A DNA stretch of 64,000 nt from an uncultured Isosphaeraceae bacterium (GCA_945957605.1 CAMFLR010000002.1:232197-296196), one strand, 5' to 3'. Counted from the stretch's first letter, positions 5,618 to 62,798 are shown. Program-made: numbers and translations. The notes: generated from the letters alone by a model not told the origin.

Positions 5618-5974
5618 TCAGCCGCCGGCCGGAAGAAGCATCAACGCTTCCGTCAAATCGTCCGCCAGGGTAAACAACGAGATCAACTTCATGGTCGCGA
5701 GCGTGTCTCGAATGAACGGATCGACGTCAAACAGCACCATTTTGCCGTTCTTCGTGGCGACACGACGTCTTAGCGTGATCAAAAATCCGAAATCGGCGCT
5801 CGACATGTACTCGAGCTTACCGAGATCGATCGCATACCGGTTATCCTCGCGGTTTTGCACCGTCTTATAGAGCGCTTCACGATGCGCCGAGCTATCCTCG
5901 GGCGCGTCATCGCCTGTTTCTTCTAGCGTGATGACCATAACGCCCGCGACTTCGTGGGTCGAGCAGGTCAGCAT
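5618..5974 (-). CDS. STAS-domain protein (anti-sigma-factor antagonist, SpoIIAA-like)
   Basis: Translation ...VMVITLEETGDD...YAIDLGKLEYMSSADFGFLITLRRRVATKNGKMVLFDVDPFIRDTLATMKLISLF is typical of the STAS fold. The start is ambiguous between 6049 and 5974. Confidence 0.65.
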   Translation of the reverse strand: MLTCSTHEVAGVMVITLEETGDDAPEDSSAHREALYKTVQNREDNRYAIDLGKLEYMSSADFGFLITLRRRVATKNGKMVLFDVDPFIRDTLATMKLISLFTLADDLTEALMLLPAGG

Positions 5975-6234
5975 GGCGAGTAGCCCTTTACAGTCCAAAA
6001 GATTTGCGATGCAACAATATGCAACCGGATCAGGAGCCTGAGTGCTCACATCCTATACACTCTAGAACACTGCCGTAAACACCGGCGCCCGCCAAATCCG
6101 GAACAAACCGCCCGGATGCCCCTGGACGATCTTTCGTGGGGTCGCTACGCTGGGTCCCTGTCGATTGCGCAAAGTGTAATCGGCATCGCTCTCTTACAAT
6201 TGCATTTTTTCGACCCCTCGGGCGTTCGAACGCA

Positions 6235-6440
6235 CTCTCAAGTGCGGCTCGAACAGGAAGCCGGTGCGAATCCGGCGCGGGACCGCCGCTGTAAGCGAGG
6301 AGGACTCGGGACAAAAGGCCACTTCGAGCGTGATGCTCGCGGGAAGGCGTCCCCTGTCCGACTGACTCGCGAGCCAGAAAACGGCCCGATGGGTCTGCCC
6401 TGCTGACGATGCTTCGGACTAAAGCATCCGGGAATCCCGC
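6235..6440 (+). promoter_or_regulatory. Candidate cobalamin (B12) riboswitch in the 5' leader of the DUF1559/PEP-CTERM unit
   Basis: The + strand reads GGAAgccGGTGcGAATCCggcGCgGGACcGCCGCTGTAAGcgAGGAGG...GCCACTtcg at 6257-6330. This matches the conserved cobalamin-riboswitch core (GGTGnnAAnTCC...GCnGnCCCGCCACTGTnA) plus a B12-box-like GCCACT. A downstream hairpin gatgcttcggactaaagcatc at 6407-6428 could be the expression platform. Confidence 0.7.
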
Positions 6441-6582
6441 GCCACGCGGGTCGATTCGGCCTGTGCTCGATCATTGATCGCACACACCACAGGCACCGAC
6501 CCAACTCATTGCGTCGCGCATCGCACTTTCCGGTCGTTTGTGTCGAAGCCTCGACTGACGGATCGACCGGAAGGAAAGTACG

Positions 6583-7440
6583 TTGAAATCCAATCACCCC
6601 CGCACCCGCGTTCGTCGCGCGTCTGGCGGTTTCACGCTGATTGAGTTGCTGGTCGTCATCGCGATCATCGCAGTTCTCATCGCGCTGCTGCTCCCCGCCG
6701 TTCAGGCCGCACGCGAAGCCGCGCGGCGGGTCAGTTGCACGAGCAACCTCAAGCAAATCGGCCTGGCCCTCCACGGCTATCACGATGTACACAACACCTT
6801 CCCCTCAGGTGGTTGGATCGCCGTCTTCAACCAGCCACAGACGAACAACATGAACATCGGCTGGTCGGCCGTTGTTCTTCCCTGGCTCGAACAGCGCCCG
6901 CTTTATGACAGCTTGAACCTGAGCTTCACCTACAACCACGCGACAAACAGCACGGCCGTCTACACCGTGCTGAACATCTACCTTTGCCCGTCTGAGCCGC
7001 GCCAAACCAACTGGAATAAGGCTCCCGGCGACGCATATTCCTCGGCCGATGCCGACTACGGCGGCATTTACGGCCCTCGCGGACTCGTCTCGCCCACCGA
7101 CGCCAACAATCCCCCGCGCGGGGCAATGCTCTTCAATCAGCCAATCTCGCTGCCTCAGATCATCGACGGTTCCGCGCAGACGATCATCGTCGGCGAGGCC
7201 CCCGAAGCGATCAACGCGATGTGGGCGAGCGGCCACAACCTCTTCGACCAGGCATTTCCCATAAACTCCCGCCCCGCAGTCGAGTTGGGAGAGGAATTAA
7301 CCAGCCAGCATTCCGGCGGCGTCAACGTTCTGCATGCCGATGGCTCGGTTCATTTCCTCAAAAACTCGATCGCTCCCGCACCACTCTCTGCGCTTCTGAC
7401 CCGAGCGCAGGGCGAAGTGATCTCGTCCGACTCGTATTGA
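6583..7440 (+). CDS. DUF1559 domain protein with prepilin-type N-terminal cleavage/methylation motif
   Basis: [53 protein letters not shown] at the N-terminus and ...[21 protein letters not shown].. at the C-terminus (H-X9-DG). A TTG start at 6583 is preceded by ggaaggaaag. Confidence 0.85.
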
Positions 7441-7496
7441 TTTGACGCACTCGTACCGCACTCTCCCGAAAGATTTCCCAACAGGAGGTTCCGCCC

Positions 7497-8297
7497 ATGG
7501 CGTGGCACCGTCTCAAGCTCGCCTTACTCTTCCTCGTCTGCGCCGCCGGAATGGCTCGCGCCGATATCACGATCGACTTCAGCGATCACCCGCTCCCGCC
7601 CAACTCGTTCGACAACGGTAGCTCGGGAAGCGGTGGCTTCACTTCAAACGGCGCGTTCTTGAACAACTCATACGACTCGACTTTCAGCGCGTGGAGTGGC
7701 TGGTCACTCTCCAACGTCAACAACAAGACGACGGCGGGCTTCACGAATCAATACGCTGCGATCACCGGCACATCGCCAACCGGTTCGGGCACATATGCCA
7801 TTGCCAATACGTTCTCGCCCAACGACGCATTCATCAATCTGCCGACCGGATACTCAGCCTCGTCGTTCGATGTAACGAACACCACCTACGCATACCTGTC
7901 GATGAAAACTGGCGACCAGTTCGCCAAGAAGTTCACCACGGGCGACTTCTTCCTGCTGACCGTCACCGGCTATTCCGGACTCGGCGCCACTGGCACAGCA
8001 CTGGCCTCGATTCCGATCTATCTCGCGAACTACACATCCGACGAAGATAATCCGCTAAACGTCTGGCGCAATGTCGGCCTGACTTCGCTTGCTGGGGCCA
8101 AAAGCCTCGGCTTCAGCCTGACTTCGTCCGACAACGGCCAGTTCGGCATGAACACTCCGGCCTACTTCGCGATGGACGAACTCGTCCTCACCCCAACCGC
8201 CGTCCCCGAACCCTCGAGCCTGGCGCTGGCCGGAATCGGCATCGCGGGTTTCGCGGCTGTGCGCTACCGTCGGTCGCGATTGAAAAAGAAGGCCTGA
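7497..8297 (+). CDS. PEP-CTERM-anchored secreted protein (Ser/Thr/Asn-rich, unknown function)
   Basis: Signal peptide MAWHRLKLALLFLVCAAGMARA. The C-terminus VPEPSSLALAGIGIAGFAAVRYRRSRLKKKA carries the PEP-CTERM sorting signal. Confidence 0.8.
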   Translation: MAWHRLKLALLFLVCAAGMARADITIDFSDHPLPPNSFDNGSSGSGGFTSNGAFLNNSYDSTFSAWSGWSLSNVNNKTTAGFTNQYAAITGTSPTGSGTYAIANTFSPNDAFINLPTGYSASSFDVTNTTYAYLSMKTGDQFAKKFTTGDFFLLTVTGYSGLGATGTALASIPIYLANYTSDEDNPLNVWRNVGLTSLAGAKSLGFSLTSSDNGQFGMNTPAYFAMDELVLTPTAVPEPSSLALAGIGIAGFAAVRYRRSRLKKKA

Positions 8298-8330
8298 TCG
8301 TTCAAGCCAATCATAAAGCTCGTCGATCAA

Positions 8331-8374
8331 ACTGGGCTCGGTCGCATCACCGCGATCGGGCCCAGTTCGTTTCT
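8331..8374 (+). terminator. Putative intrinsic terminator after the PEP-CTERM gene
   Basis: Imperfect GC-rich hairpin ctgggctcggtcg...cgatcgggcccag followed by ttcgtttctc. Confidence 0.35.
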
Positions 8375-8683
8375 CAAGTGAAGAACAACCCGCTCTCATC
8401 AGTTGTGATTCAAATACGACGACACAACGCGACGATTCCACATCAAATCTACACCTCTTTTACATTCATGAATCCATCTCGAATCGAATTCTTCGCCTCC
8501 GGCGCTTTCTTCTGTTCAAAACTCTTCCAAAACAGCACTCAACGCACCTGACATTTTTTCCCAACAACAAACCGAATTCCTTGGAATTGCCCTTCGGTTC
8601 GAAGTATTTTGTGAGGCGTCCACGCTTCCCGAGCGTGCGGAAGTACCCTCTCTCGCGGCAAGTCGATCAAAAGGGGATGCACC

Positions 8684-11167
8684 ATGATGCCTTTGAAGGG
8701 GTTAAGGATAACCGTCGCCGTCGTCGCTCTCGGCGCTCTGCTCATCACGCCTGCATTCGGTCAGAAAGAGACCAGCAATTCACTCGCGCGTTACGTTCCA
8801 TCCGACGGGCTGAGCATCCTGCTCGAACACGATGGCCTCCACTCGCAGCCCAAGGTCTGGGAAGCGAGCGCGACGTACAAGATGCTCAACGAAACCAAGC
8901 TGGGGATCATGCTTGAGGATATCCTCACGCAATTGATCGACCACGGCCTTCGTTCGGTTCCACAGCCGCCGCTCAAGGGCAAGGAAATTGTCGGTCTCGT
9001 CGAACACCTGATCGACAAAGGCTTCGCCATCGGCTACTGCGGCCCGCTCAACGCGCCAACGCCAAAGGCCGCCGTGGTAGTCATTCGCGACGCCAATAAG
9101 AGTGACACGTTCAAGAAACTGATGAAGATGATCCCCCAGGCCCAGGAACCGGCTGCCAAGCAGATTGACGCCCCTGGCGGCCGCAAAGTCTGGACGATGG
9201 AAGGTGCCCCGGTCCGCTGGTGGTTCGAGAAGGATGACTTCGTCTTCTCCTTCGCTCCTCCCGGCGCTCCCGATCCTGTCGTTGCCGTCCTCGAAGGCAC
9301 CGCTCCCAGCGCACTCAAATCGCCCCTGCGCAACACGCTTTGGAAAGGGACCTCGTCCGACTACACCCCTATCGGCGTCCTCTTCGTCGATCTCTCAACC
9401 CTTCCCCAGCTCCCGCCTCAAGCGGTTCAGCTTGGACTCGACGGCGTGAAGGCGGTCGAGGCAAGTTGGGGTCTGCAAGGTAAGGCGACGGTCACGATGA
9501 TCGGCATTCAGGCGCCCAAACCGCGCCGGGGGATCATCGCCCTGTTCGACCAGCCCGCGATCGGCACAGCGACTCGCTACACCCCAGCCGACGGCGGAAA
9601 CGACTACACCGTCATGTCGATCGAGCCCGGCAAATTCGTCGATGGCATCTTCGCGCTGATGAAGCAAGCCGACGCGAACTCCGCCGCCAATGCCCAGAAA
9701 TTTGCAGCCGAATTCGAGCGCCGAACGCAGGTCAACTTGCGTAAGGATCTCCTCGGCAAGGTCGGACCGCGTATCGCTTTCTCAAGTGGAGGCGGTCTCG
9801 GCCTGAGCAACATCTTCGGCATGTGGTTCCACCCGCCGGATTTCGGAATCGTCGCCGAGTTGAAAGACCCCGAAGCATTCCAGGCCACGCTCGACAAATT
9901 GATCGCCTCGCTCAATCGCGAGTTGCGAAGTGCAGGCGCAATGGTCCCGCCGCAGCCGGGCCAGCCGGTGCGCAAAGGAACGGCCTACGCGGAATTCCGC
10001 AAACTCCCCGCGCCTGATAACGGCTACATTCTGTCGATTCCTCCTTCGGTACTCACTTTGCCGAGCGGGTTCCGGCCAACGGTGATGATCGACGCCAAGC
10101 GCAACTTGATCGCCCTCGGCGGCACAGCGAAATCGGCCGCCAAGGCTCTCACTTCGCTCGACCTTAACGCCAAGGGTGGCGAGCCAATCGCTGAAAAGGA
10201 CGCGGTCGTTTTCTCGAAGTCAGACCAGGCTCAAATCTTGCCCGAACTCCTCACGAACGTGCCCGCGATCGTGCAGTTCTTCGGTTTCGCCGCAGCACAG
10301 CCCGGCCCTGGGCGTCCCGGCGGGCCTCCGTTCCGCCTCGAAATGGATCCCGACTCGATCCCCGATCCCGACTCGATGCGTAAATTCATGTTCCCGTCGA
10401 CATACACAATGTCGGTCGACAACGATTCGATTCGCTTCACTGGCTACCAGCCGTTCCCGCTCGCAATTCCGCAGATCAGCGGAGGCATGGAAGCCCCGGT
10501 GCTCGTCGCCCTGCTGCTGCCGGCCGTTCAGGCGGCACGTGAAGCGGCCCGACGCGCCCAGTGCGTCAACAATCTCAAGCAGATTGGTCTGGCAATGCAC
10601 AACCATCACGCCGCGCTCGACGGCTTGCCGCCCCGAGCCATCACGAACGCTGCCGGCAAGCCACTACTGAGCTGGCGCGTGGCGATTTTGCCCTACATCG
10701 AACAGCAGGCGCTTTACGAAAAGTTCAAGCTCGATGAACCCTGGGATAGCCCCCATAACAGCGAACTGATCAAGTACATGCCACAGATTTATATGTGCCC
10801 GTCTCGCACAGGCGACGCAAAGGACGGCCAAACCAACTACCAGGCATTCGCTGGCGAAGGTGCCCTGTTCGACTCGCGTCGCAAGGTTTCGTTCGCCCGA
10901 GTGACCGACGGGCTCTCGAACACCCTCATGGTGGTTGAAGCCTCAACGCCAGTCACCTGGACCAAGCCCGATGACCTGCCGTTCGACGCAGCCGCAGCCA
11001 ATCCCGCGAAGCCGCTCTTCGGCGCGGGCTCCAGCCACGCCGGCGGGTTCAACGCACTCATGGGAGACGGTTCCGTTCGCTTCATCAAGTCATTGGTCTC
11101 GCCGCAAGTGATGCGTGCATTGATCACCCGCGCCGGCGGCGAAATCCTCGGTGCCGACTCGTTCTGA
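8684..11167 (+). CDS. Large secreted fusion protein: ~590-aa novel N-terminal domain plus C-terminal DUF1559 domain without the pilin-like leader
   Basis: Signal peptide [27 protein letters not shown]. The internal ...[33 protein letters not shown]... and C-terminal ...[46 protein letters not shown] are DUF1559-like. Confidence 0.8.
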
Positions 11168-28437: not shown

Positions 28438-28914
28438 TCAATTCGCAGCCTTGGCCTTCACGTCGAAATCAAGCACTCCGCCGCCTGAGGGAACCTCAGC
28501 GGGGAAGGCCCCAGATGCACCTTCCGTCGGATCGGCCTTCTTCTTGGCCTTGGGCGCGGCCGTGGACTCAGCAAGAAGTTGGCCTGCGTCGTTCTTGGGC
28601 GTGGGAGGTTCGTCGCCCGCCGTCGCCACGCTGGCAGGCGCCTTGGAAACTCTTACCTGATATTTCCCAGGCGTAAGACCCGCCCGCCCCGCGGCGGTAT
28701 GCGCCATGTAATTGCCTTCAGGACCAGTCGTGTCGGCGCCGAGCGTGCCTTCGCGATTCGACGCGTCGGGCATGAACTCAACAAGCGCACCGCCGTACGG
28801 CTTGCCGTTGAGCGTGATCGTCCCGGTGACCCTCACAAGCTTGGGCTCGCCACCACCGCAGCCAACAAGGCCGACCGAAACCAAACCGACAAAGAACGCT
28901 GTCGCGTATTTCAT
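28438..28914 (-). CDS. Lipoprotein with carboxypeptidase-regulatory-like beta-sandwich; usual DUF1559 partner
   Basis: MKYATAFFVGLVSVGLVGCGG lipobox, then ...RVTGTITLNGKPYGGALVEF.., immediately downstream of a DUF1559 gene on the same strand. Confidence 0.65.
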   Translation of the reverse strand: MKYATAFFVGLVSVGLVGCGGGEPKLVRVTGTITLNGKPYGGALVEFMPDASNREGTLGADTTGPEGNYMAHTAAGRAGLTPGKYQVRVSKAPASVATAGDEPPTPKNDAGQLLAESTAAPKAKKKADPTEGASGAFPAEVPSGGGVLDFDVKAKAAN

Positions 28915-29049
28915 GAGGTTGTTGAACTCGAAATCCGGGTGTCAAAGTGAACCGCATTTCCAGCGCAATGCGCGTATTCCGCCGTCACGCGAGACGATGC
29001 ATGGCGAAACGCGGCAAAAGCAATTCACCATGCATCGGACAATCACACA

Positions 29050-30039
29050 TCAAAACGAATCAGCACTAATCACTTCACCACCTTGAATCGTGCTCAGCGC
29101 GAACCAGGTGTAAGGGCTGATCGAGTTCTTGATGAACCTCACGCTGCCATCGCCGAACAGCATGTTCACGCCGCCGGGATGCTTGCTGCTGAAGTTCCAG
29201 GCATACGGCTTCTGCGGCGTCCCCGGCGGTGTCGCATTCGGCTGCGAGTACTGTTGCAAGGTCAGAGCGCTCTGGCTCGGGTCGAGAATTCGCCCGTGCA
29301 CGGCAGTGTGCGTACCCGCAGCCCAGTATGGGCCATATGCCGTCGCCTGTTTGATCTGGACCGATTCACCTAGCAGCATCGTGTTGCTCAAACCATCGCG
29401 AATTTCAGAAATCCGCGTCGCGTAATCGGTCCAGAACGGAGCCTTGAACTGAGTTGCAATGCTGCCGTAGGTGTAGCCGCAGTTGTAGTCGGTATAGCTA
29501 CCGGTATTGAACAGGTGGTTACTCCGCGCGACGTTGTTCCGTTCGTAAAAGTCCGTCGTGGAAAGCGCGTTCGACGTGACGGTTTGCGGAGGATCATCCG
29601 ACGGGCAAAGGAATGAGTTGATAATAAGACCGGTCACCGTGGTGTTCACCGCATCGGTGCCAATGACAGCCACACCGTACGGACTCGACATACTCGAAGC
29701 ATGGCTGAAGTTGAATGAGTTAAACGTCTGCTGCTGTTCCATCTGGCCGAGAATCAGCGAAAAACCGGTCGTGTTTTTCACACCGTAGCCAACGGGAGGA
29801 GTGGGCGTTGTTGGTGCATTACAGCGACCGCTACCAATCATCGGCGGCGGAAATGCAGTGTTTGCACTCTCATAATTGTGAAGCGCAAGGCCGACCTGTT
29901 TCAAATTGTTCACGCACTGGGCGCGTCTGGCAGCCTCACGCGCGGCCTGCACGGCCGGCAAAAGCAGCGCAATCAACACGGCGATAATCGCGATGACAAC
30001 GAGAAGTTCAATGAGCGTGAACCCACGGCGCAAGCGCAT
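29050..30039 (-). CDS. DUF1559 domain protein with prepilin-type N-terminal motif
   Basis: [56 protein letters not shown]...[21 protein letters not shown]. The ATG at 30039 is preceded by AGGAGAT. Confidence 0.85.
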
Positions 30040-32933: not shown

Positions 32934-33007
32934 GGTTGTGGACGGGAGTCGAACCCGCTACCTACAGATTCTAAGTCTGTCGCTCTATCCAGGTGAGCTA
33001 CCACGCC
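32934..33007 (-). tRNA. tRNA-like gene with anticodon UAG but a class-I (short variable loop) shape; acceptor stem has two mismatches, so possibly a pseudo-tRNA
   Basis: Sense strand: GGCGTGG TA GCTC ACCTGGATA GAGC G ACAGA CTTAGAA TCTGT AGGTA GCGGG TTCGACT CCCGT CCACAAC. Confidence 0.5.
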
Positions 33008-33147
33008 TACGACATCGCCCCGGTTTTCATTCCATTCACGGAACGCCCTGCGCCAATCGCCAAAAGCGAGGCCGGTACGCCGCTGGCCCGACGATGCCAT
33101 ATGCTCTCTTGCAAAGTTGAGTATGAGAATTCTGATCCTCATACAAG

Positions 33148-33218
33148 AGACGCTGGTGGGAGTCGAACCCACTTCCACCGGGTTGCAGCCGGTTGCCTGG
33201 CCGTCTGGCTCCAGCGTC
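33148..33218 (-). tRNA. tRNA-Cys (GCA)
   Basis: Sense strand: GACGCTG...ACCGG CTGCAAC CCGGT...TGGG TTCGACT CCCA CAGCGTC; perfect acceptor stem. Confidence 0.8.
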
Positions 33219-33234
33219 ATGTTTACGATTTCAA

Positions 33235-33306
33235 TGTCCTCGCCGGGAGTTGAACCCGGTCCTCGACCTTCGCAGAGTCGTGTGCCATCCATCACACCCC
33301 GAGGAC
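33235..33306 (-). tRNA. tRNA-Arg (GCG), an unusual anticodon for bacteria
   Basis: Sense strand: GTCCTCG GG GTGT GATGGATG GCAC A CGACT CTGCGAA GGTCG AGGA CCGGG TTCAACT CCCGG CGAGGAC. Confidence 0.6.
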
Positions 33307-33328
33307 GTGTTTACCCAAACAACGAAAA

Positions 33329-33399
33329 TCCCCCGCCCGGGAGTCGAACCCGGCCTTGCGGCTTCGAACACCGCCGTGCACCCAACACACTCACAGGGA
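33329..33399 (-). tRNA. tRNA-Arg (UCG)-like; G at position 32 and a wobble-rich acceptor stem
   Basis: Anticodon arm GCGGT GTTCGAA GCCGC; T-arm CCGGG TTCGACT CCCGG; acceptor TCCCTGT/GCGGGGG with three G-U pairs. Confidence 0.5.
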
Positions 33400-33400
33400 G

Positions 33401-33472
33401 TACGCCCGCCAGGAGTCGAACCTGGTCCACAACTTGAGAAAAGTCGTGTGCCGTTCGTAACACTCCAAGGGC
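33401..33472 (-). tRNA. tRNA-Arg (UCU)-like; C at position 37 is non-canonical
   Basis: Anticodon arm CGACT TTTCTCA AGTTG; T-arm CCAGG TTCGACT CCTGG; acceptor GCCCTTG/CGGGCGT with one mismatch. Confidence 0.5.
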
Positions 33473-33481
33473 AAAAAACAG

Positions 33482-33551
33482 CAGGAGCGCAAGGATTTGA
33501 ACCCTGTCCGTCCGGGTTGGAGCCGGAGTCCTCTCCCAGGAGGACGCTCCT
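33482..33551 (-). tRNA. tRNA-Trp (CCA) with an irregular D-arm
   Basis: Anticodon arm TCCGG CTCCAAC CCGGA (anticodon CCA); perfect acceptor AGGAGCG/CGCTCCT. The D region forms a 6-bp hairpin GTCCTC-CTGGGA-GAGGAC instead of a canonical 4-bp stem. Confidence 0.6.
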
Positions 33552-33559
33552 GTCATGAA

Positions 33560-34150
33560 TCACGCAAGTGCGAGACTCGGTGCATCATTTACGAATCGCG
33601 ACCAGCTTGCGATCGCACCGTCATGAATTGCGTGGAATGGCTTCCAGTCGGGCCGAGTCGGCCGGCGACGCAAATGCATTCCCGCCTGCTCGGGCGTGCG
33701 GTCTGCCTTGATCGCATTGCACTCCGGGCAAGCCGCCACGCAGTTCAACCAGCTTGATGTACCACCGCGCGATCGCGGAATGATGTGGTCGATGGTGATT
33801 CGATCCCACCCCGGCTGTACGCCGCAATACTGACACGTGTGATGATCGCGCTTGGCGACGTTGCGGCGGCTGAAAGCAACCGCCTTCGAGGGCACACGGT
33901 CATAATGTGTCAAGCATACAACTTCGGGGACTCGCAGACGCCTGTGAGCCGTGCGAATACAAGGAGCATCGAGCGGAGGAGTGAGTTCCGACCATTCGTG
34001 CCAGCCGTAGAGCCGATACTCATCCGGCTCAACGACCTGGGCCGCCTCGTTCCAGAGCATCGTCAGAGCACGAACCACGCTCGTCACGTGGATCGGTTGC
34101 CAATGTCGGTTGAGAACTAGCGTTTGTCGAGCAAGCACATCGGTCGTCAT
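33560..34150 (-). CDS. HNH endonuclease embedded in the tRNA array
   Basis: Track ORF 33560..34387; its first 79 codons merely overlap tRNA-His and tRNA-Ser. The real start is M80 (MTTDVLARQTLVLNRHWQPIHV) at 34150, preceded by GGAGG. The HNH motif is ...HHTCQYCGVQPGWDRITIDHIIPRSRGGTSSWLNCVAACPECNAIK. Confidence 0.75.
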   Translation of the reverse strand: MTTDVLARQTLVLNRHWQPIHVTSVVRALTMLWNEAAQVVEPDEYRLYGWHEWSELTPPLDAPCIRTAHRRLRVPEVVCLTHYDRVPSKAVAFSRRNVAKRDHHTCQYCGVQPGWDRITIDHIIPRSRGGTSSWLNCVAACPECNAIKADRTPEQAGMHLRRRPTRPDWKPFHAIHDGAIASWSRFVNDAPSLALA

Positions 34151-34176
34151 CGAAACCTCCGAGAAACGAAAACCAG

Positions 34177-34249
34177 GGTGCCCGGCGGGAGTTGAACCCA
34201 GCGCCTTGAGATCCACAATCTCATGTGCTTCCGTTACACCACGGGCACC
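34177..34249 (-). tRNA. tRNA-His (GUG) with genomically encoded G-1:C73
   Basis: Sense strand: G-GTGCCCG TG GTGT AACGGAA GCAC A TGAGA TTGTGGA TCTCA AGGCG CTGGG TTCAACT CCCGC CGGGCAC C. Confidence 0.85.
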
Positions 34250-34334
34250 ATCAATACTGAAACGTGTCGAAACCGTAACTCCTTCTACTCTCCACTCTCT
34301 CCGTTCTCCTCTCTCTTCGCCGCAGGCGAAGAAG

Positions 34335-34420
34335 CGGAAGGCAAGGGATTCGAACCCCCATGCCCTTTCGAGCGCACTCTTTAGCAAAGAGGCCCGGCAA
34401 ACCGTATCCGGCTACCTTCC
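34335..34420 (-). tRNA. tRNA-Ser (GCU), class II with a long variable arm
   Basis: Sense strand: GGAAGGT AG CCGG ... CCTCT TTGCTAA AGAGT GCGCTCGAAAGGGCAT GGGGG TTCGAAT CCCTT GCCTTCC G. Confidence 0.8.
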
Positions 34421-34431
34421 GTAAAAACCAG

Positions 34432-34502
34432 TGGACAGCCGGGGAATTGAACCCCGATCTCCTGGGTGCAAACCAGGTGTCTTCCCATTGGACCAGCCGC
34501 CC
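34432..34502 (-). tRNA. tRNA-Ala (UGC) with the G3:U70 identity pair
   Basis: Sense strand: GGGCGGC TG GTCC AATGGGA AGAC A CCTGG TTTGCAC CCAGG AGAT CGGGG TTCAATT CCCCG GCTGTCC A. Confidence 0.85.
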
Positions 34503-34531
34503 ATCCTCATACGATCACACAAACAACCGAA

Positions 34532-34604
34532 TCATCCCGGCAGGACTCGAACCTGCGGTATCCTGCTTGTAGGGCAGGCGTCTTGGCCGCTAGACGACGG
34601 GACG
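34532..34604 (-). tRNA. tRNA-Val (UAC)
   Basis: Sense strand: CGTCCCG TC GTCT AGCGGCCA AGAC G CCTGC CCTACAA GCAGG ATACC GCAGG TTCGAGT CCTGC CGGGATG A. Confidence 0.75.
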
Positions 34605-34697
34605 ATCATTCGCGAGTTGCGGGTTCAGGAGTTGCACCTGAGGACCAGGTTTATGAGACCCAGTTGAGCGCTGGCCCACCCGCAAATTGTATAACAG

Positions 34698-34772
34698 CGC
34701 CCCCGATGGGATTTGAACCCACGGCCTCTACCTTGACAGGGTAGCGAGCACTCCAGACTGCTCCACGAGGGC
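34698..34772 (-). tRNA. tRNA-Asp (GUC)
   Basis: Anticodon arm CTACC CTGTCAA GGTAG; T-arm GTGGG TTCAAAT CCCAT; acceptor GCCCTCG/CGGGGGC; discriminator G. Confidence 0.85.
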
Positions 34773-34801
34773 GAATGATCGATTGACATAGAGTGAGAGA
34801 G

Positions 34802-34875
34802 TAGCCCGAGAGGGATTCGAACCCCCAATGCCCTGCTTCTAAGGCAGGTGGCTTTGCCAGTTAGCCTACCGGGCC
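34802..34875 (-). tRNA. Well-formed class-I tRNA with anticodon UAG (Leu by anticodon, but a short variable loop); atypical
   Basis: Sense strand: GGCCCGG TA GGCT AACTGGCAA AGCC A CCTGC CTTAGAA GCAGG GCATT GGGGG TTCGAAT CCCTC TCGGGCT A. Confidence 0.6.
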
Positions 34876-34887
34876 ATGTTTCGAGAG

Positions 34888-34962
34888 TTCCGGGTGCTGG
34901 AATCGAACCAGCGGCCTCCGCGTTCAGAGCGCGGTGTCACTACCAACAGCAACTGCCCCGGA
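34888..34962 (-). tRNA. tRNA-Gln (CUG)
   Basis: Anticodon arm CCGCG CTCTGAA CGCGG; T-arm GCTGG TTCGATT CCAGC; U1-A72. Confidence 0.8.
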
Positions 34963-35008
34963 TCAAATTTGATAATTCGTGCTTACGCTACTTGAACACT
35001 TCTCAATG

Positions 35009-35084
35009 TTCGGGGAGCAGGAATCGAACCTGCGAACTCCTGATTCAAATTCAGGGATTTCTTACCAACAGAAACTACCCCCGA
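35009..35084 (-). tRNA. tRNA-Gln (UUG)
   Basis: Anticodon arm CCTGA ATTTGAA TCAGG; T-arm GCAGG TTCGATT CCTGC; acceptor TCGGGGG/TCCCCGA. Confidence 0.8.
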
Positions 35085-35085
35085 G

Positions 35086-35158
35086 AGTGCCCTGCGGGAG
35101 TTGAACCCGCCTGTCCGGTTTGGAAGACCGGTGCCTCAAGCCGCTCGGCCAAGGGCAC
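35086..35158 (-). tRNA. tRNA-Gly (UCC)
   Basis: Anticodon arm CCGGT CTTCCAA ACCGG; T-arm GCGGG TTCAACT CCCGC; acceptor GTGCCCT/AGGGCAC; discriminator U. Confidence 0.8.
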
Positions 35159-35177
35159 TTTTTCAATTCAAACAAAG

Positions 35178-35252
35178 CACCGGGGGCAGGAATCGAACCT
35201 ACGAACTCCTCATTAACAGTGAGGCGCATAAACCAGCTTATGCGACCCCGGT
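35178..35252 (-). tRNA. tRNA-Asn (GUU)
   Basis: Anticodon arm CCTCA CTGTTAA TGAGG; T-arm GTAGG TTCGATT CCTGC; acceptor ACCGGGG/CCCCGGT. Confidence 0.85.
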
Positions 35253-35276
35253 ATGGATCGATCTGGCTGAAAGCCA

Positions 35277-35347
35277 AGTGCCCAGCGGGAGTCGAACCCG
35301 CACATCCGCCATGGCAAGACGGTAGGCTACCGCTACATCATGGGCAC
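35277..35347 (-). tRNA. tRNA-Gly (GCC)
   Basis: Anticodon arm CCGTC TTGCCAT GGCGG; T-arm GCGGG TTCGACT CCCGC; acceptor GTGCCCA/TGGGCAC. The D-arm pairing is ambiguous. Confidence 0.7.
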
Positions 35348-35382
35348 GAACGTATTGCAACCTGATTGTCAAAGAAGCCGAG

Positions 35383-35454
35383 AGCACCGGGTGGGACTCG
35401 AACCCACGTTGCCGCATTACGAATGCGGAGTCTTCGCCGCTAGACGACCAGTGC
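35383..35454 (-). tRNA. tRNA-Thr (CGU)
   Basis: Anticodon arm CCGCA TTCGTAA TGCGG; T-arm GTGGG TTCGAGT CCCAC; acceptor GCACTGG/CCGGTGC. Confidence 0.75.
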
Positions 35455-35462
35455 AAGCCGAA

Positions 35463-35534
35463 TGAGACCGGAGGGATTTGAACCCTCACCCCCTGGTTAA
35501 GAGCCAGGCATGCTGCCAGTAACACTTCAGTCCC
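35463..35534 (-). tRNA. tRNA-Lys (CUU)
   Basis: Anticodon arm CCTGG CTCTTAA CCAGG; T-arm GAGGG TTCAAAT CCCTC; D-stem GTGT/GCAT, shared with the other Lys tRNA. Confidence 0.8.
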
Positions 35535-35551
35535 GAACCTATGTGCGTGAG

Positions 35552-35622
35552 TCGGCTCAGGAGGAGTTGAACCTCCGTCTCGCGGTTATCAGCCGCGTGT
35601 TCTGCCGTTGAACTACAAGCCG
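35552..35622 (-). tRNA. tRNA-Ile (GAU)
   Basis: Anticodon arm CGCGG CTGATAA CCGCG; D-arm GTTC AACGGCA GAAC; T-arm GGAGG TTCAACT CCTCC. Confidence 0.85.
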
Positions 35623-35650
35623 GCAGTGCGTCTTTTCGTTGGCCTATAGA

Positions 35651-35722
35651 TGGGGCCGGAGGGATTCGGACCCTCACCAACCGGCTTAAAAGGCCGATAT
35701 GCCGCCGTTACACCACAGCCCC
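35651..35722 (-). tRNA. tRNA-Lys (UUU)
   Basis: Anticodon arm TCGGC CTTTTAA GCCGG; T-loop TCCGAAT; acceptor GGGGCTG/CGGCCCC. Confidence 0.85.
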
Positions 35723-35845
35723 GCATAAGTCTGCATGAGGGCCGCGCGTTTATACCTAATCATGTTCCGCTCCGAATCTGAACTCTTTCTACTCTCCACT
35801 CTCTTCATTCAACTCTCTATTTTTTGACGCAAAAGCGGCAAAAAA

Positions 35846-35919
35846 TCGGGATGGCCGGATTCGAACCGGCGCTCTCCTGCTCCCAAGGCAGGCGGATTAC
35901 CAGACTTTCCTACATCCCG
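35846..35919 (-). tRNA. tRNA-Pro (UGG)
   Basis: Anticodon arm CCTGC CTTGGGA GCAGG; T-arm GCCGG TTCGAAT CCGGC; perfect acceptor CGGGATG/CATCCCG. Confidence 0.85.
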
Positions 35920-35932
35920 TGCAATGAGCGAG

Positions 35933-36006
35933 CAGCCCGTGAGGGAATCGAACCCTGCCTCTCCGCCTTGAAAGAGCGGTGTCCTGAACCGATAGACGAA
36001 CGGGCC
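35933..36006 (-). tRNA. tRNA-Glu (UUC)
   Basis: Anticodon arm CCGCT CTTTCAA GGCGG; T-arm CAGGG TTCGATT CCCTC; acceptor GGCCCGT/ACGGGCT. Confidence 0.8.
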
Positions 36007-36028
36007 ATAGAACCTTCAACGAGCCGAG

Positions 36029-36100
36029 TGGACTGGGTGGCGCTCGAATCCACGTCTGCGGTGCTTCAAACCGCCGCTATACCGTCTCAGCTACCAGTCC
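36029..36100 (-). tRNA. tRNA-Phe (GAA)
   Basis: Anticodon arm GCGGT TTGAAGC ACCGC; D-arm GCTG AGACGGTA TAGC; perfect acceptor GGACTGG/CCAGTCC. Confidence 0.75.
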
Positions 36101-61076: not shown

Positions 61077-62798
61077 ATGAGTGTTCGACTCTCCCGTGCA
61101 GCGTATGCCAAGAAATATGGCCCGACGACCGGGGACCGAATCCGGTTAGCCGACAGCGAACTCATTATTGAGATCGAAAAAGATTACACCGACTACGGCG
61201 AAGAATCGATCTTCGGCGGCGGAAAGTCGGTTCGCGACGGGCAGGCTCAGTGCTCGTTTGAAGAGCCAATGAGCCCTGCGCACTGCGACCTTGTCATCAC
61301 CAATGCGGTCATCATCGACCATTGGGGGATCGTCAAGGGCGACATCGGAATCAAGCACGGCCGGATCGTGGCGGTCGGCAAGTCCGGCAACCCCAACACA
61401 CAGCAAGGTATCGACCCGCGTCTCGTCATCGGGCCGGGTACCGAGATCATCGCGGCTGAAGGGCGGATTGTCACGGCAGGTGGTGTCGACACGCACATTC
61501 ACTTCATTTGCCCACAGCAAATCGAAACGGCGATTGCTTCGGGCATCACCACGCTGATCGGTGGCGGCACTGGCTCGGCTACGGGCACGTGGGCCACAAC
61601 TTGTACGCCAGGCCCCTGGAACATCATGCGGATGCTTCAGGCATTCGAGGGCCTGCCGATCAACGTAGGCATCCTGGGTAAAGGTAACGGCAGCGTTCAG
61701 AAGCCGCTGATCGACCAGATCGAAGCCGGGGCCTGCGGCCTGAAATTGCACGAAGACTGGGGCACGACGCCGGCCGTCATCGACACCAGCCTGACGGTCG
61801 CGGATGAGTACGATATTCAGATCGCCATCCATACCGACACGCTGAATGAGTCAGGCTTTCTCGCTGACTCAGTGGCAGCGATGAAGGGCCGCACGATCCA
61901 TAGCTTCCACACGGAAGGTGCAGGCGGCGGTCACGCCCCCGACATCATCAGCATCGCTGCGCTGCCCAACGTCTTGCCATCGAGCACGAATCCAACGCGC
62001 CCGTTCACGGTCAACACGATCGATGAACATCTTGACATGCTGATGGTTTGCCATCACCTGTCACGAAATATCCCCGAAGACGTGGCATTCGCCGAAAGCC
62101 GAATCCGCGCCGAGACGATTGGCGCGGAAGACGTCTTCCACGACCGCGGCATCATCAGCATGATGAGCTCTGACTCGCAGGCGATGGGTCGAATCGGCGA
62201 GGCGATCGTTCGTTGCTGGCAGACCGCCCACAAGATGAAAGTTCAGCTCGGCGCACTGGCAACGGATTCTTCACGCAACGATAACGAACGCGTGAAACGG
62301 TACGTCGCCAAATACACAATCAACCCCGCGATTGCTCACGGTATTGGCGACTACGTGGGCAGTATCGAAGGTGGCAAGCTGGCCGACCTCGTGGTCTACA
62401 AGCCCGAGTATTTCGGCGTGAAGCCCGAGTTGATTCTCAAGGGCGGCTTGCTCGTGTCGGCGCAAATGGGCGACCCGAACGCCAGCATTGCCACGCCGCA
62501 ACCGGTCTACCCGCGTCCACAGTTCGCATCTTACGGCCGGGCACTTTCCAAGTCGTGCCTGTCGTTCGTCTCGAAGGCTTCGCTGTCGAAGGGGATCATC
62601 GAAGGGTATGGCCTGCAGCGCGAAGTTGTCGCAGTCGAAAACTGTCGCAAGATCGGTAAGAAAGACATGCGGCGCAACGAGGCAACTCCCGAAATCCGCG
62701 TCGACGCCGACACCTATCAGGTGTTCGTCGATGGGGAAAAGGTGGGCAGCGAGCCGCTTGAGACGTTGCCGATGACCCAGCGTTACTTCCTGTTCTGA
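61077..62798 (+). CDS. ureC: Urease alpha subunit
   Basis: ..[16 protein letters not shown].., ..MVCHHL.. are nickel-binding His motifs. Confidence 0.95.

Follow-up and report, generated by a model that had tools for sequence, protein, structure and literature searches.

A cobalamin riboswitch in front of a prepilin-type DUF1559 gene and a BtuJ-family gene in a planctomycete: evidence for a probable cobalamin-scavenging operon

A stretch of 64,000 nucleotides from an uncultured Isosphaeraceae bacterium (GCA_945957605.1, CAMFLR010000002.1:232197-296196), in the following called the window, was found to contain a cobalamin riboswitch and, downstream of it on the same strand, a gene for a prepilin-type DUF1559 protein (gene 1) and a gene for a presumably secreted protein of the BtuJ family, DUF4465 (gene 2). 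As a whole, these data are best explained by a two-gene operon for the scavenging of cobalamin, which is repressed by B12 and in which the DUF1559 protein acts as an inward acceptor. We regard this explanation as rather probable.

The full-length aptamer (RF00174) including the P6 extension and the B12 box was located by an Rfam scan at positions 6203 to 6403 of the plus strand (84.8 bits against a gathering score of 31.5, E-value 1.8e-19). It was the sole cobalamin match in the whole window, spanned the entire model (positions 1-189 of 189) without truncation and occupied the same position in orthologous operons. The core strings GGAAGCC...CTGTAAG and GCCACT reside at 6256-6295 and 6318-6323, respectively. 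From such strings the original prediction, made from the sequence alone, had proposed a cobalamin riboswitch core with a B12 box preceding a DUF1559/PEP-CTERM gene pair. Both points were borne out by the Rfam scan, since the match is significant, lies on the plus strand and is situated 5' of the genes at 6583-7440 and 7497-8297; the start coordinate given at that time (6235) falls 32 nt within the aptamer. The aptamer ends 180 nt 5' of the TTG start of gene 1 at 6583 and has the same orientation as both genes. A sigma-70 promoter scan gave no match; the position of the sequence TACAAT (6195-6200) would suit a -10 element, yet there is no -35 element to match it. We concluded that the riboswitch almost certainly controls the two-gene unit. 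It is extremely unlikely that its target is instead the divergent STAS (anti-sigma antagonist) gene at 5618-5974, for which proximity (approximately 230 nt, on the other strand) is the only argument, because this gene lies on the minus strand and upstream of the plus-strand aptamer. Moreover, a STAS gene is not conserved beside the riboswitch in other loci.

Gene 1 (6583-7440) and gene 2 (7497-8297) are separated by 56 nt without a terminator, within which the ribosome-binding site of gene 2 (AGGAGG, 7483-7488, plus strand) could be read from the sequence. In relatives, the spacing of the two genes varies between an overlap of 4 nt and a gap of 83 nt. These short gaps are consistent with co-transcription. 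Behind gene 2, a terminator-like hairpin was found on the plus strand (8330-8375), composed of a perfect 16-bp stem with a 6-nt loop (8330-8367) and followed by CGUUUCUC. With -41 kcal/mol (z-score -6.6) the hairpin was more stable than each of 200 shuffled sequences, none of which folded as well. It had not been flagged by a simple terminator scan because its U-tract is weak, and it coincides with the terminator that had been suggested to close the unit at about 8331-8374. It is strongly supported that both genes are present on one transcript, which ends at this hairpin.

A functional indication came from gene 2, which encodes a protein of 266 aa on the plus strand. DUF4465 (PF14717) was recognized at aa 62-229 with an E-value of 1.7e-46 (159.2 bits against a cut-off of 25; profile positions 2-176 of 176). 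The protein possesses a Sec-type signal peptide with a cleavage site near ARA/DIT (aa 20-25), though no lipobox, unlike Bacteroides BtuJ, and terminates in a PEP-CTERM anchor at aa 235-259 (VPEPSSLALAGIGIAGFAAVRYRRSRLKKKA), in which PEP motif, transmembrane helix and basic tail could all be recognized (PF07589, 30.6 bits, cut-off 20.7; TIGR02595, 16.8 bits, cut-off 16). By sequence it matched the solved DUF4465 structures 4jqr (E-value 1.4e-20), 9hmu, a B12 complex (2.7e-17), and 9fct, which is BtuJ1 (1.1e-15), and in addition BtuJ1 9qpm and BtuJ2 9i2l. An AlphaFold2 model calculated from 60 homologs reached a predicted local distance difference test score (pLDDT) of 92.3. When this model was compared to the PDB by Foldseek, the top nine matches were all DUF4465/BtuJ proteins with template modelling (TM) scores of 0.57 to 0.84, the best of them being 4jqr (0.84), while the B12 complexes 9hmu and 9qpm both scored 0.78. 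The model thereby displays the augmented beta-jellyroll fold. Its HI loop (NTPAYF, aa 219-224) and DE-helix (TNTTYAYLSM, aa 127-136) align to the loops of BtuJ1 and D5EK51, and N219 and Y223 correspond to the B12 contacts Asn-291 and Tyr-295 of BtuJ2 (PMC13616437).

Eight divergent DUF4465 proteins, including a member from the planctomycete Mucisphaera calidilacus, have been reported to bind B12; the HI loop of the family reads (G/N)TPAY(F), and its tyrosine is kept in 97% of the homologs (PMC13398666). In Bacteroides thetaiotaomicron, the surface lipoproteins BtuJ1 and BtuJ2 are encoded in riboswitch-regulated loci; their affinities for B12 and cobinamide are nanomolar to sub-nanomolar, and they hand the ligand on to other Btu proteins (bioRxiv 10.1101/2025.07.01.662609; PMC13616437). 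Repression of the riboswitch-controlled operon by B12 has been reported as well (PMC13616437). Judging from its sequence and model, gene 2 very probably specifies a B12 binder as well. Because the fold and the conserved B12-contacting loop with N219 and Y223 have been retained, we expect that its product scavenges cobalamin or other corrinoids, either extracellularly or within the envelope. Two statements of the original prediction had to be abandoned at this point, namely that the downstream families both lack an assigned function and that the case is an exception to the normal targets of cobalamin riboswitches. Gene 2 carries DUF4465, for which B12 binding of nanomolar or tighter affinity was shown experimentally (PMC13398666; bioRxiv 10.1101/2025.07.01.662609), and as a BtuJ-family gene for B12 acquisition it belongs to the usual targets. 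Since the family binds B12, the riboswitch controls a B12-acquisition gene as usual, and only the DUF1559 partner is out of the ordinary.

The partnership was studied in both directions. Starting from DUF4465, 80 loci were compiled with one genome per species and grouped by their record label only; genes of all fetched loci were called with a simple open reading frame rule, and metagenome bins can be mislabelled. Riboswitches at the Rfam gathering level were present upstream of DUF4465 on the coding strand in 14 of 15 and 12 of 16 loci tested. An nhmmer model built from the Rfam-verified hits, whose calls beyond the verified sets are based on sequence only, detected the riboswitch in 67 of the 80 loci, and most of the misses were contigs cut off upstream. 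A TonB-dependent receptor (TBDR) was encoded in 49 of 61 non-Planctomycetota loci, most of which belong to Bacteroidota and others to Pseudomonadota and Kiritimatiellota, but in none of the 19 Planctomycetota loci (Fisher exact test, p 1.2e-10). The identity of the receptor was confirmed by the Pfam Plug and beta-barrel domains in L004, L031 and L036 (L numbers denote the fetched loci). An adjacent prepilin-type gene on the same strand, usually DUF1559, showed the opposite distribution, as it occurred in 13 of the 19 Planctomycetota loci and only twice among the other 61 (p 7.6e-9). One of these two cases is from Verrucomicrobiota (L027), the other was binned as Alcaligenaceae but has genes that look planctomycetal (L008). 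Hence, apart from one Verrucomicrobiota locus, the pairing with a prepilin-type DUF1559 gene is confined to Planctomycetota, in agreement with the suggestion that it is specific to organisms with a planctomycete-type envelope. Among the Pfam domains of the genes called in the window, no TBDR was found in the operon or within approximately 10 kb of it. Because the TBDR is the defining feature of a canonical BtuB-centred Btu locus, the locus does not represent one.

Architectures were compared for the Planctomycetota-labelled loci together with L008 and L027. The arrangement riboswitch, DUF1559, DUF4465/PEP-CTERM is shared by the window, L002, L008, L022, L024, L038 and L043. In Novipirellula and Rhodopirellula (L007, L013, L017, L018, L021) the riboswitch and DUF1559 are followed by a secreted protein of 2013 aa with three DUF4465 domains and a dockerin, and in L012 and the Verrucomicrobiota locus L027 the order is reversed, with a riboswitch, a dockerin protein in some instances, DUF4465 and a prepilin-type N_methyl gene; reversed gene order is also listed for L003. 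Pirellula-type loci (L009, L014, L015, L023) contain the riboswitch with DUF4465/PEP-CTERM alone. That the linkage outlasts changes of gene order and of the format of the partner is evidence for a functional coupling. The 2013-aa protein (Novipirellula sp. SH528, L018 3877-9918; also L007 and L013), whose gene comes immediately behind the riboswitch-controlled one for DUF1559, also carries a Planctomycete extracellular signal. With its DUF4465 domains in tandem, it has the look of a multivalent B12 binder.

The same set of loci bears on the idea that the pair merely sequesters corrinoids at the envelope, as a reservoir or competition device, and that DUF1559 is nothing but a scaffold or an anchor. 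BtuJ1 has been described as an extracellular B12 reservoir which passes B12 to other surface proteins (bioRxiv 10.1101/2025.07.01.662609), and the PEP-CTERM anchor of gene 2 would fit a static surface layer. A reservoir of this kind would nevertheless still need a downstream acceptor. This place is taken by the co-operonic TBDR in 49 of the 61 non-planctomycete loci, and here DUF1559 is the only conserved co-operonic candidate. We consider a pure reservoir quite improbable.

For the reverse comparison, loci were retrieved on the basis of DUF1559. Orthologs of gene 1 fell into more than 120 clusters with identities of 67-78%, compared to 46-62% for relatives of gene 2; gene 1 is thus even better conserved than the B12 binder. 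Thirteen close relatives of gene 1 (L084-L092 from metagenomes, L117-L120 by protein look-up) were set against 24 distant DUF1559 paralogs with about 30% identity (L093-L116). DUF4465 was encoded downstream in 13 of 13 close relatives, with one extra PEP-CTERM gene between the two genes in L118, but in 0 of 24 paralogs. All 11 close relatives for which upstream sequence was available exhibited a riboswitch in front of DUF1559, so that homologous pairs in other genomes do carry it, which the original prediction had proposed to check; among the paralogs there was a single case (L094). A neighbour-joining tree of 43 DUF1559 sequences united the 21 DUF4465-linked proteins, without exception, in one clade that spans Isosphaeraceae-type and Pirellulales genomes and excludes the 22 unlinked paralogs, including both other DUF1559 domains of the window. 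A comparison of residues disclosed 12 positions conserved to at least 90% in the linked clade and to at most 15% in the others (S95, A96, A125, G160, Y163, R166, N175, P177, N219, F221, D222 and L259). We conclude that there is strong support for a DUF1559 subfamily that shares inheritance and regulation with DUF4465 in at least two orders of planctomycetes.

With 41 to about 100 DUF1559 copies per genome (PMC8567305) and three such domains in the window alone, one of them might have come to lie between a riboswitch and a binder by chance and have no B12 function at all. This is very improbable, and chance adjacency is effectively excluded because the reverse comparison contradicts it: the same orthologous subfamily was linked in 13 of 13 independently retrieved relatives from Pirellulales and Isosphaeraceae-type genomes and the unlinked paralogs in 0 of 24. 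The clade-specific residues, the higher identity of gene 1 than of the binder and the linkage of prepilin-type genes in reverse order in L012 and L027 argue in the same direction.

The complete set is also present in a cultured type strain, Paludisphaera borealis PX4 (L117 7682-9730; CP019082.1, at about 3,620,842-3,622,890), in which an RF00174 element of 105 bits, DUF1559 and DUF4465/PEP-CTERM are accompanied by a TolC-like gene. The latter, an outer-membrane efflux gene (OEP, PF02321; L117 9932-11551), lies on the same strand 200 nt after DUF4465. The riboswitch-bearing paralog L094 (1-1345) is 31% identical to gene 1 and falls outside the linked clade, yet it is located directly behind a cobalamin riboswitch of 82 bits. 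Its contig ends before any downstream gene; it may belong to a second, independent B12-regulated DUF1559 lineage.

Gene 1 itself codes for 285 aa on the plus strand, its TTG start having been fixed by comparison with relatives. A leader of 16 aa is followed by FTLIELLVV (N_methyl, PF07963, 31.8 bits against 21.2), the DUF1559/SBP_bac_10 domain (PF07596, E-value 1.1e-48, 167.1 bits against 23.3) and the C-terminal H-X9-DG motif (TIGR04294, 37.3 bits against 19). Residues 16-123 resemble GspG, the major pseudopilin of the type II secretion system (T2SS), with an E-value of 2.7e-11 and 43.6 bits, which is below the equivalog cut-off of 88.85 (TIGR01710). Matches to PDB sequences were limited to the N-terminal alpha1 helix of pilins. 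DUF1559 is expanded in Planctomycetales, with at least 41 and up to approximately 100 genes per genome and 91 in Tuwongella, where the proteins were recovered from both inner-membrane-type and SDS-soluble envelope fractions; the genes are reportedly often flanked by genes for proteins with signal peptides (PMC8567305). Our literature search retrieved no paper linking DUF1559 with cobalamin and, within the DUF1559 literature found, none on its function. The combination of cobalamin riboswitch and Planctomycetes yielded unrelated work only, and that of Planctomycetes with TonB-dependent, crateriform and pili yielded none.

The window holds three DUF1559 domains in all. An unlinked paralog at 29053-30036 on the minus strand is followed by a gene for a lipoprotein of 158 aa at 28438-28914 (whole stretch 28438-30036), which showed a sub-threshold match to CarboxypepD_reg (E-value 0.027) that we regard as a lead and not as a result. 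A similar small lipoprotein gene comes after the paralog in L093 (1017-2685), and DUF1559 genes may generally pair with a small secreted beta-sandwich partner. The third domain belongs to a protein of 827 aa encoded at 8684-11167 (plus strand), 387 nt downstream of the B12 operon and after the terminator hairpin. Its C-terminal third (aa 616-802) consists of DUF1559 and H-X9-DG, and its pilin-like helix is internal and devoid of the N_methyl motif. This atypical fused DUF1559 gene is kept at that place in contigs of the same species.

The features of gene 1 could also be those of a mere export helper, that is, a cargo-specific pseudopilin of a T2SS-like machine that drives the DUF4465 protein, possibly along with further PEP-CTERM proteins, across the outer membrane, with B12 entering by an unrelated route. 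Such a function would be compatible with the GspG-like part at aa 16-123, albeit below the cut-off, with the frequent neighbourhood of signal-peptide proteins (PMC8567305), with the small lipoprotein genes behind unlinked paralogs in the window and L093 and with the extra PEP-CTERM gene within the pair of L118. Known T2SS machines, however, employ one fixed set of pseudopilins for many cargos and not one per cargo. By general knowledge of the family, the sorting of PEP-CTERM proteins is attributed to exosortase and not to the T2SS, and in the Pirellula-type loci DUF4465/PEP-CTERM stands behind the riboswitch without an adjacent DUF1559 gene. An export function alone therefore appears unlikely to us.

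Several relatives harbor an additional candidate component. A gene for the membrane protein DUF6580 (PF20221) lies directly after DUF4465 in L090 (4857-5402), L091 (1241-1777), L092 (1250-1417), L118 (7697-8287) and L119 (6827-7411), while in L084 (2441-4051) it is situated behind its own second RF00174 riboswitch together with a gene for a Dph6-like ATP pyrophosphatase (PF01902). No copy was found in the window, and DUF6580 gave no sequence match in the PDB, no NCBIfam match and no paper. By its genomic context the protein is a candidate inner-membrane corrinoid transporter.

DUF6580 also figures in another interpretation, according to which the globular domain of DUF1559 would be a BtuF-like cobalamin-binding module, tethered to the inner membrane by the pilin-like helix; B12 would cross the outer membrane by some other pore and be passed to a transporter such as DUF6580. 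This proposal can draw on the Pfam short name SBP_bac_10, on a clade-specific cluster of aromatic and charged residues (Y163, R166, N219, F221, D222), on the co-operonic DUF6580 genes in L090, L091, L092, L118 and L119 and on the number of 40-100 paralogs per genome (PMC8567305), which resembles the expansion of a family of substrate-binding proteins. Against it stand the sequence comparisons, which detected no similarity to a periplasmic binding protein of known structure and gave PDB matches to pilin N-terminal helices only, the canonical G/FTLIELL motif with E5, which is a signature of filament assembly, and the occurrence of DUF1559 in the SDS-soluble outer envelope fraction too (PMC8567305). 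A periplasmic binder of this type is hence a doubtful option.

To characterize the expression platform, nine leaders were aligned and folded. Cobalamin riboswitches work by the logic of a kissing loop formed by L5 and L13. Directly 3' of the aptamer, a hairpin GAUGCUUCGGACUAAAGCAUC was identified on the plus strand (6408-6428), whose stem and loop start (GAUGCUUCGG-CU...GCAUC) are invariant in 9 of 9 aligned leaders. Its loop contains CGG, the complement of a CCG within the aptamer loop GACCG. Considering this complementarity and the known architecture of cobalamin riboswitches, the hairpin is a candidate P13, and its loop the candidate kissing partner of the aptamer loop. A second element is a helix sequestering the ribosome-binding site (6526-6578, plus strand), in which the anti-Shine-Dalgarno (anti-SD) sequence CUUUCC(GGUCG) at 6526-6536 pairs with (CGACC)GGAAGGAAAG at 6564-6578; it ends 4 nt before the TTG start of gene 1. 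The helix appeared in both the minimum free energy and the centroid fold of the window leader. SD:anti-SD pairing amounts to 5.9 expected base pairs for the window and reaches 2.4 or more in 7 of 9 full leaders, the commonest pair being CCUUUCC(G) with (C)GGAAAGG. Compensatory variants occurred in L090 (CCUUCC/GGAAGG), in L088 (CCGUC/GACGG) and in the window (CUUUCCGGUCG/CGACCGGAAGGAAAG). An intrinsic terminator was not detected on the plus strand between the aptamer and the start codon. Because a conserved helix buries the ribosome-binding site of gene 1 and the leader has no terminator on this strand, the control is most likely exerted at translation, with cobalamin as the off signal.

We also considered a three-way switch, in which GGGAAGGC of the aptamer core competes with the SD for the anti-SD GCCUUUCC. 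It was rejected, as the equilibrium pairing probability was 0 in 9 of 9 leaders. The duplex energies are comparable (-10 to -19 kcal/mol), and the switch is kept as speculation only.

On this basis the following mechanism is proposed. In the presence of cobalamin, the riboswitch would switch off translation from the leader. When it is produced, the protein encoded by gene 2, anchored by PEP-CTERM, would bind corrinoids such as cobalamin in the extracellular space or within the envelope. The DUF1559 protein would be cleaved by a prepilin peptidase and built into or onto a short pseudopilus resembling those of the T2SS or of type IV pili (T4P) and spanning the periplasm, where it may accept either cobalamin or the loaded binder and carry it inward from the surface. 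Such a transfer would stand in for the TonB-dependent transporter BtuB of Bacteroidota. Transfer across the inner membrane would be accomplished by a transporter encoded elsewhere, for which DUF6580 is a candidate in several relatives. It is likely that DUF1559 has some dedicated role in the acquisition of B12; the specific role in pseudopilus hand-over or import is a tentative suggestion. The export helper, the periplasmic binder and the reservoir scaffold share the same regulatory logic with the operon proposed here.

A number of observations weigh against the proposed operon function. The role of DUF1559 is deduced from genomic comparison. Its AlphaFold2 model, for which the only admissible homologs were 67-78% identical, had a mean pLDDT of 55.5 and was judged unusable. 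Genes for the assembly of a T2SS or T4P do not adjoin the operon, as no Pfam domain of a secretin, ATPase or platform protein was found among the called genes within approximately 10 kb, and the PEP-CTERM anchor of gene 2 suggests a fixed attachment to the envelope and not a protein borne by a pilus. The solitary riboswitch-controlled DUF4465 genes in L009, L014, L015 and L023 indicate that DUF4465 can work without an adjacent DUF1559. BtuB may be encoded elsewhere in the genome, as the comparison covered loci only. The exact split into linked and unlinked DUF1559 proteins was recovered in 19 of 50 bootstraps, so that the deep node is weakly supported. In L001, a close relative from the Isosphaeraceae, both genes of the DUF1559-DUF4465 pair are intact, but upstream of them no more than a partial aptamer-like remnant of 15 bits (GGGAAUUGGGUGAGAAGCCCAGC...) was left at 1337-1482, which may be a decayed riboswitch or a divergent variant. 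Finally, concerning the coupling of aptamer and platform, equilibrium folding sequestered the SD even without ligand, and no structure of the ON state was seen.

Notwithstanding these points, a B12-regulated surface capture or uptake module, as had been envisaged initially, fits the comparative evidence obtained in both directions. The regulatory handle on DUF1559 expected from the riboswitch exists in the form of a riboswitch-linked subfamily and is complemented by a functional handle through the DUF4465 partner. DUF1559 is among the largest protein expansions of planctomycetes, and our data provide a first functional clue to it: a ligand-sensing RNA, a partner from a B12-binding family and strict co-inheritance all tie one of its subfamilies to a defined small molecule, and this subfamily holds the operon position that BtuB has in other phyla. 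The family thereby becomes approachable by experiment, with growth at limiting B12 as phenotype, B12 as regulator, mutable residues and a cultured strain with a complete genome (P. borealis PX4). The results bear on how planctomycetes move nutrients across the outer membrane, extend the BtuJ story to a transporter context outside the BtuJ papers of 2025-26 and flag DUF6580 as a candidate. It is conceivable, though improbable on present data, that DUF1559 is altogether the planctomycete counterpart of TonB-dependent transporters, each of the 40-100 paralogs being a ligand-specific subunit of a pseudopilus or pilus that pulls a nutrient through the outer membrane with a cognate secreted binder. 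If this were true, riboswitch-DUF1559-DUF4465 would be the first case with a ligand, cobalamin, readable from the genome, and both the expansion of DUF1559 and the 'unknown mechanism' of substrate uptake into the planctomycete periplasm would be explained.

Two further features of the window lie apart from the operon. On the minus strand, 25 tRNA genes for 19 amino acids, several of them isoacceptors, are crowded into 3.2 kb (32934-36100; Rfam and ARAGORN). Such crowding of tRNA genes is uncommon and in some cases goes along with mobile elements or phages. An Rfam match to 5_ureB_sRNA (61254-61530, minus strand, 81.5 bits) most likely reflects a conserved urease gene and not a small RNA, because this family is antisense to the coding region of Helicobacter ureB.

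Among known systems, the BtuJ1 and BtuJ2 loci of B. thetaiotaomicron are probably alike in that a cobalamin riboswitch represses an operon with a secreted DUF4465 jellyroll protein at the surface for B12 scavenging, and gene 2 shares with BtuJ1 and BtuJ2 the Pfam family, the NTPAY loop and the fold (TM 0.57-0.78 to 9qpm, 9fct and 9i2l). The window operon differs by lacking BtuB, BtuG, BtuH, BtuK and BtuFCD and by the prepilin-type DUF1559 partner; gene 2 is only 16-28% identical to the Bacteroides proteins and has a PEP-CTERM/exosortase anchor in place of a lipoprotein export signal. By lineage, the closest tested relatives are the B12 binders D5EK51 of Coraliomargarita akajimensis and 'Pan' of M. 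calidilacus from the Planctomycetes-Verrucomicrobia-Chlamydiae group (PMC13398666; PDB 9HMU). The neighbourhoods reported for the DUF4465 family comprise only ABC transporters, TonB-dependent barrels and plugs, and beta-propellers (PMC13398666). A term search of that family paper (PMC13398666) revealed no mention of DUF1559, pilins, PEP-CTERM or contexts specific to Planctomycetes, and the DUF1559 partner is not mentioned in a review of September 2026 either.

The leader resembles that of E. coli btuB, a cobalamin riboswitch acting at translation: there too, a structure behind the aptamer covers the ribosome-binding site, and the loop of a hairpin on the 3' side of the aptamer shows complementarity to one of the aptamer loops. 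In the window, unlike in E. coli, the candidate kissing hairpin (6408-6428) and the ribosome-binding site helix (6526-6578) are separate and about 100 nt apart. With GspG and type IV pilins, gene 1 has in common the prepilin leader, the G/F cleavage site, E5 and the hydrophobic alpha1 helix, and a weak homology to GspG extends to about residue 123. Unlike GspG, it is a member of a family represented by tens to about 100 paralogs in each genome and has a 285-aa body with DUF1559 and H-X9-DG modules, and in contrast to GspG and type IV pilins it lies outside any gsp or pil gene cluster, as seen in a neighbourhood of approximately 10 kb. No pilin or pseudopilin is known as B12-regulated from the searchable literature. 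What is known here is the combination of a cobalamin riboswitch with a BtuJ-type binder, both of which display their defining sequence and structure features; what is new is that a pilin-like DUF1559 protein and a PEP-CTERM anchor take the place of the TBDR and the lipoprotein anchor.

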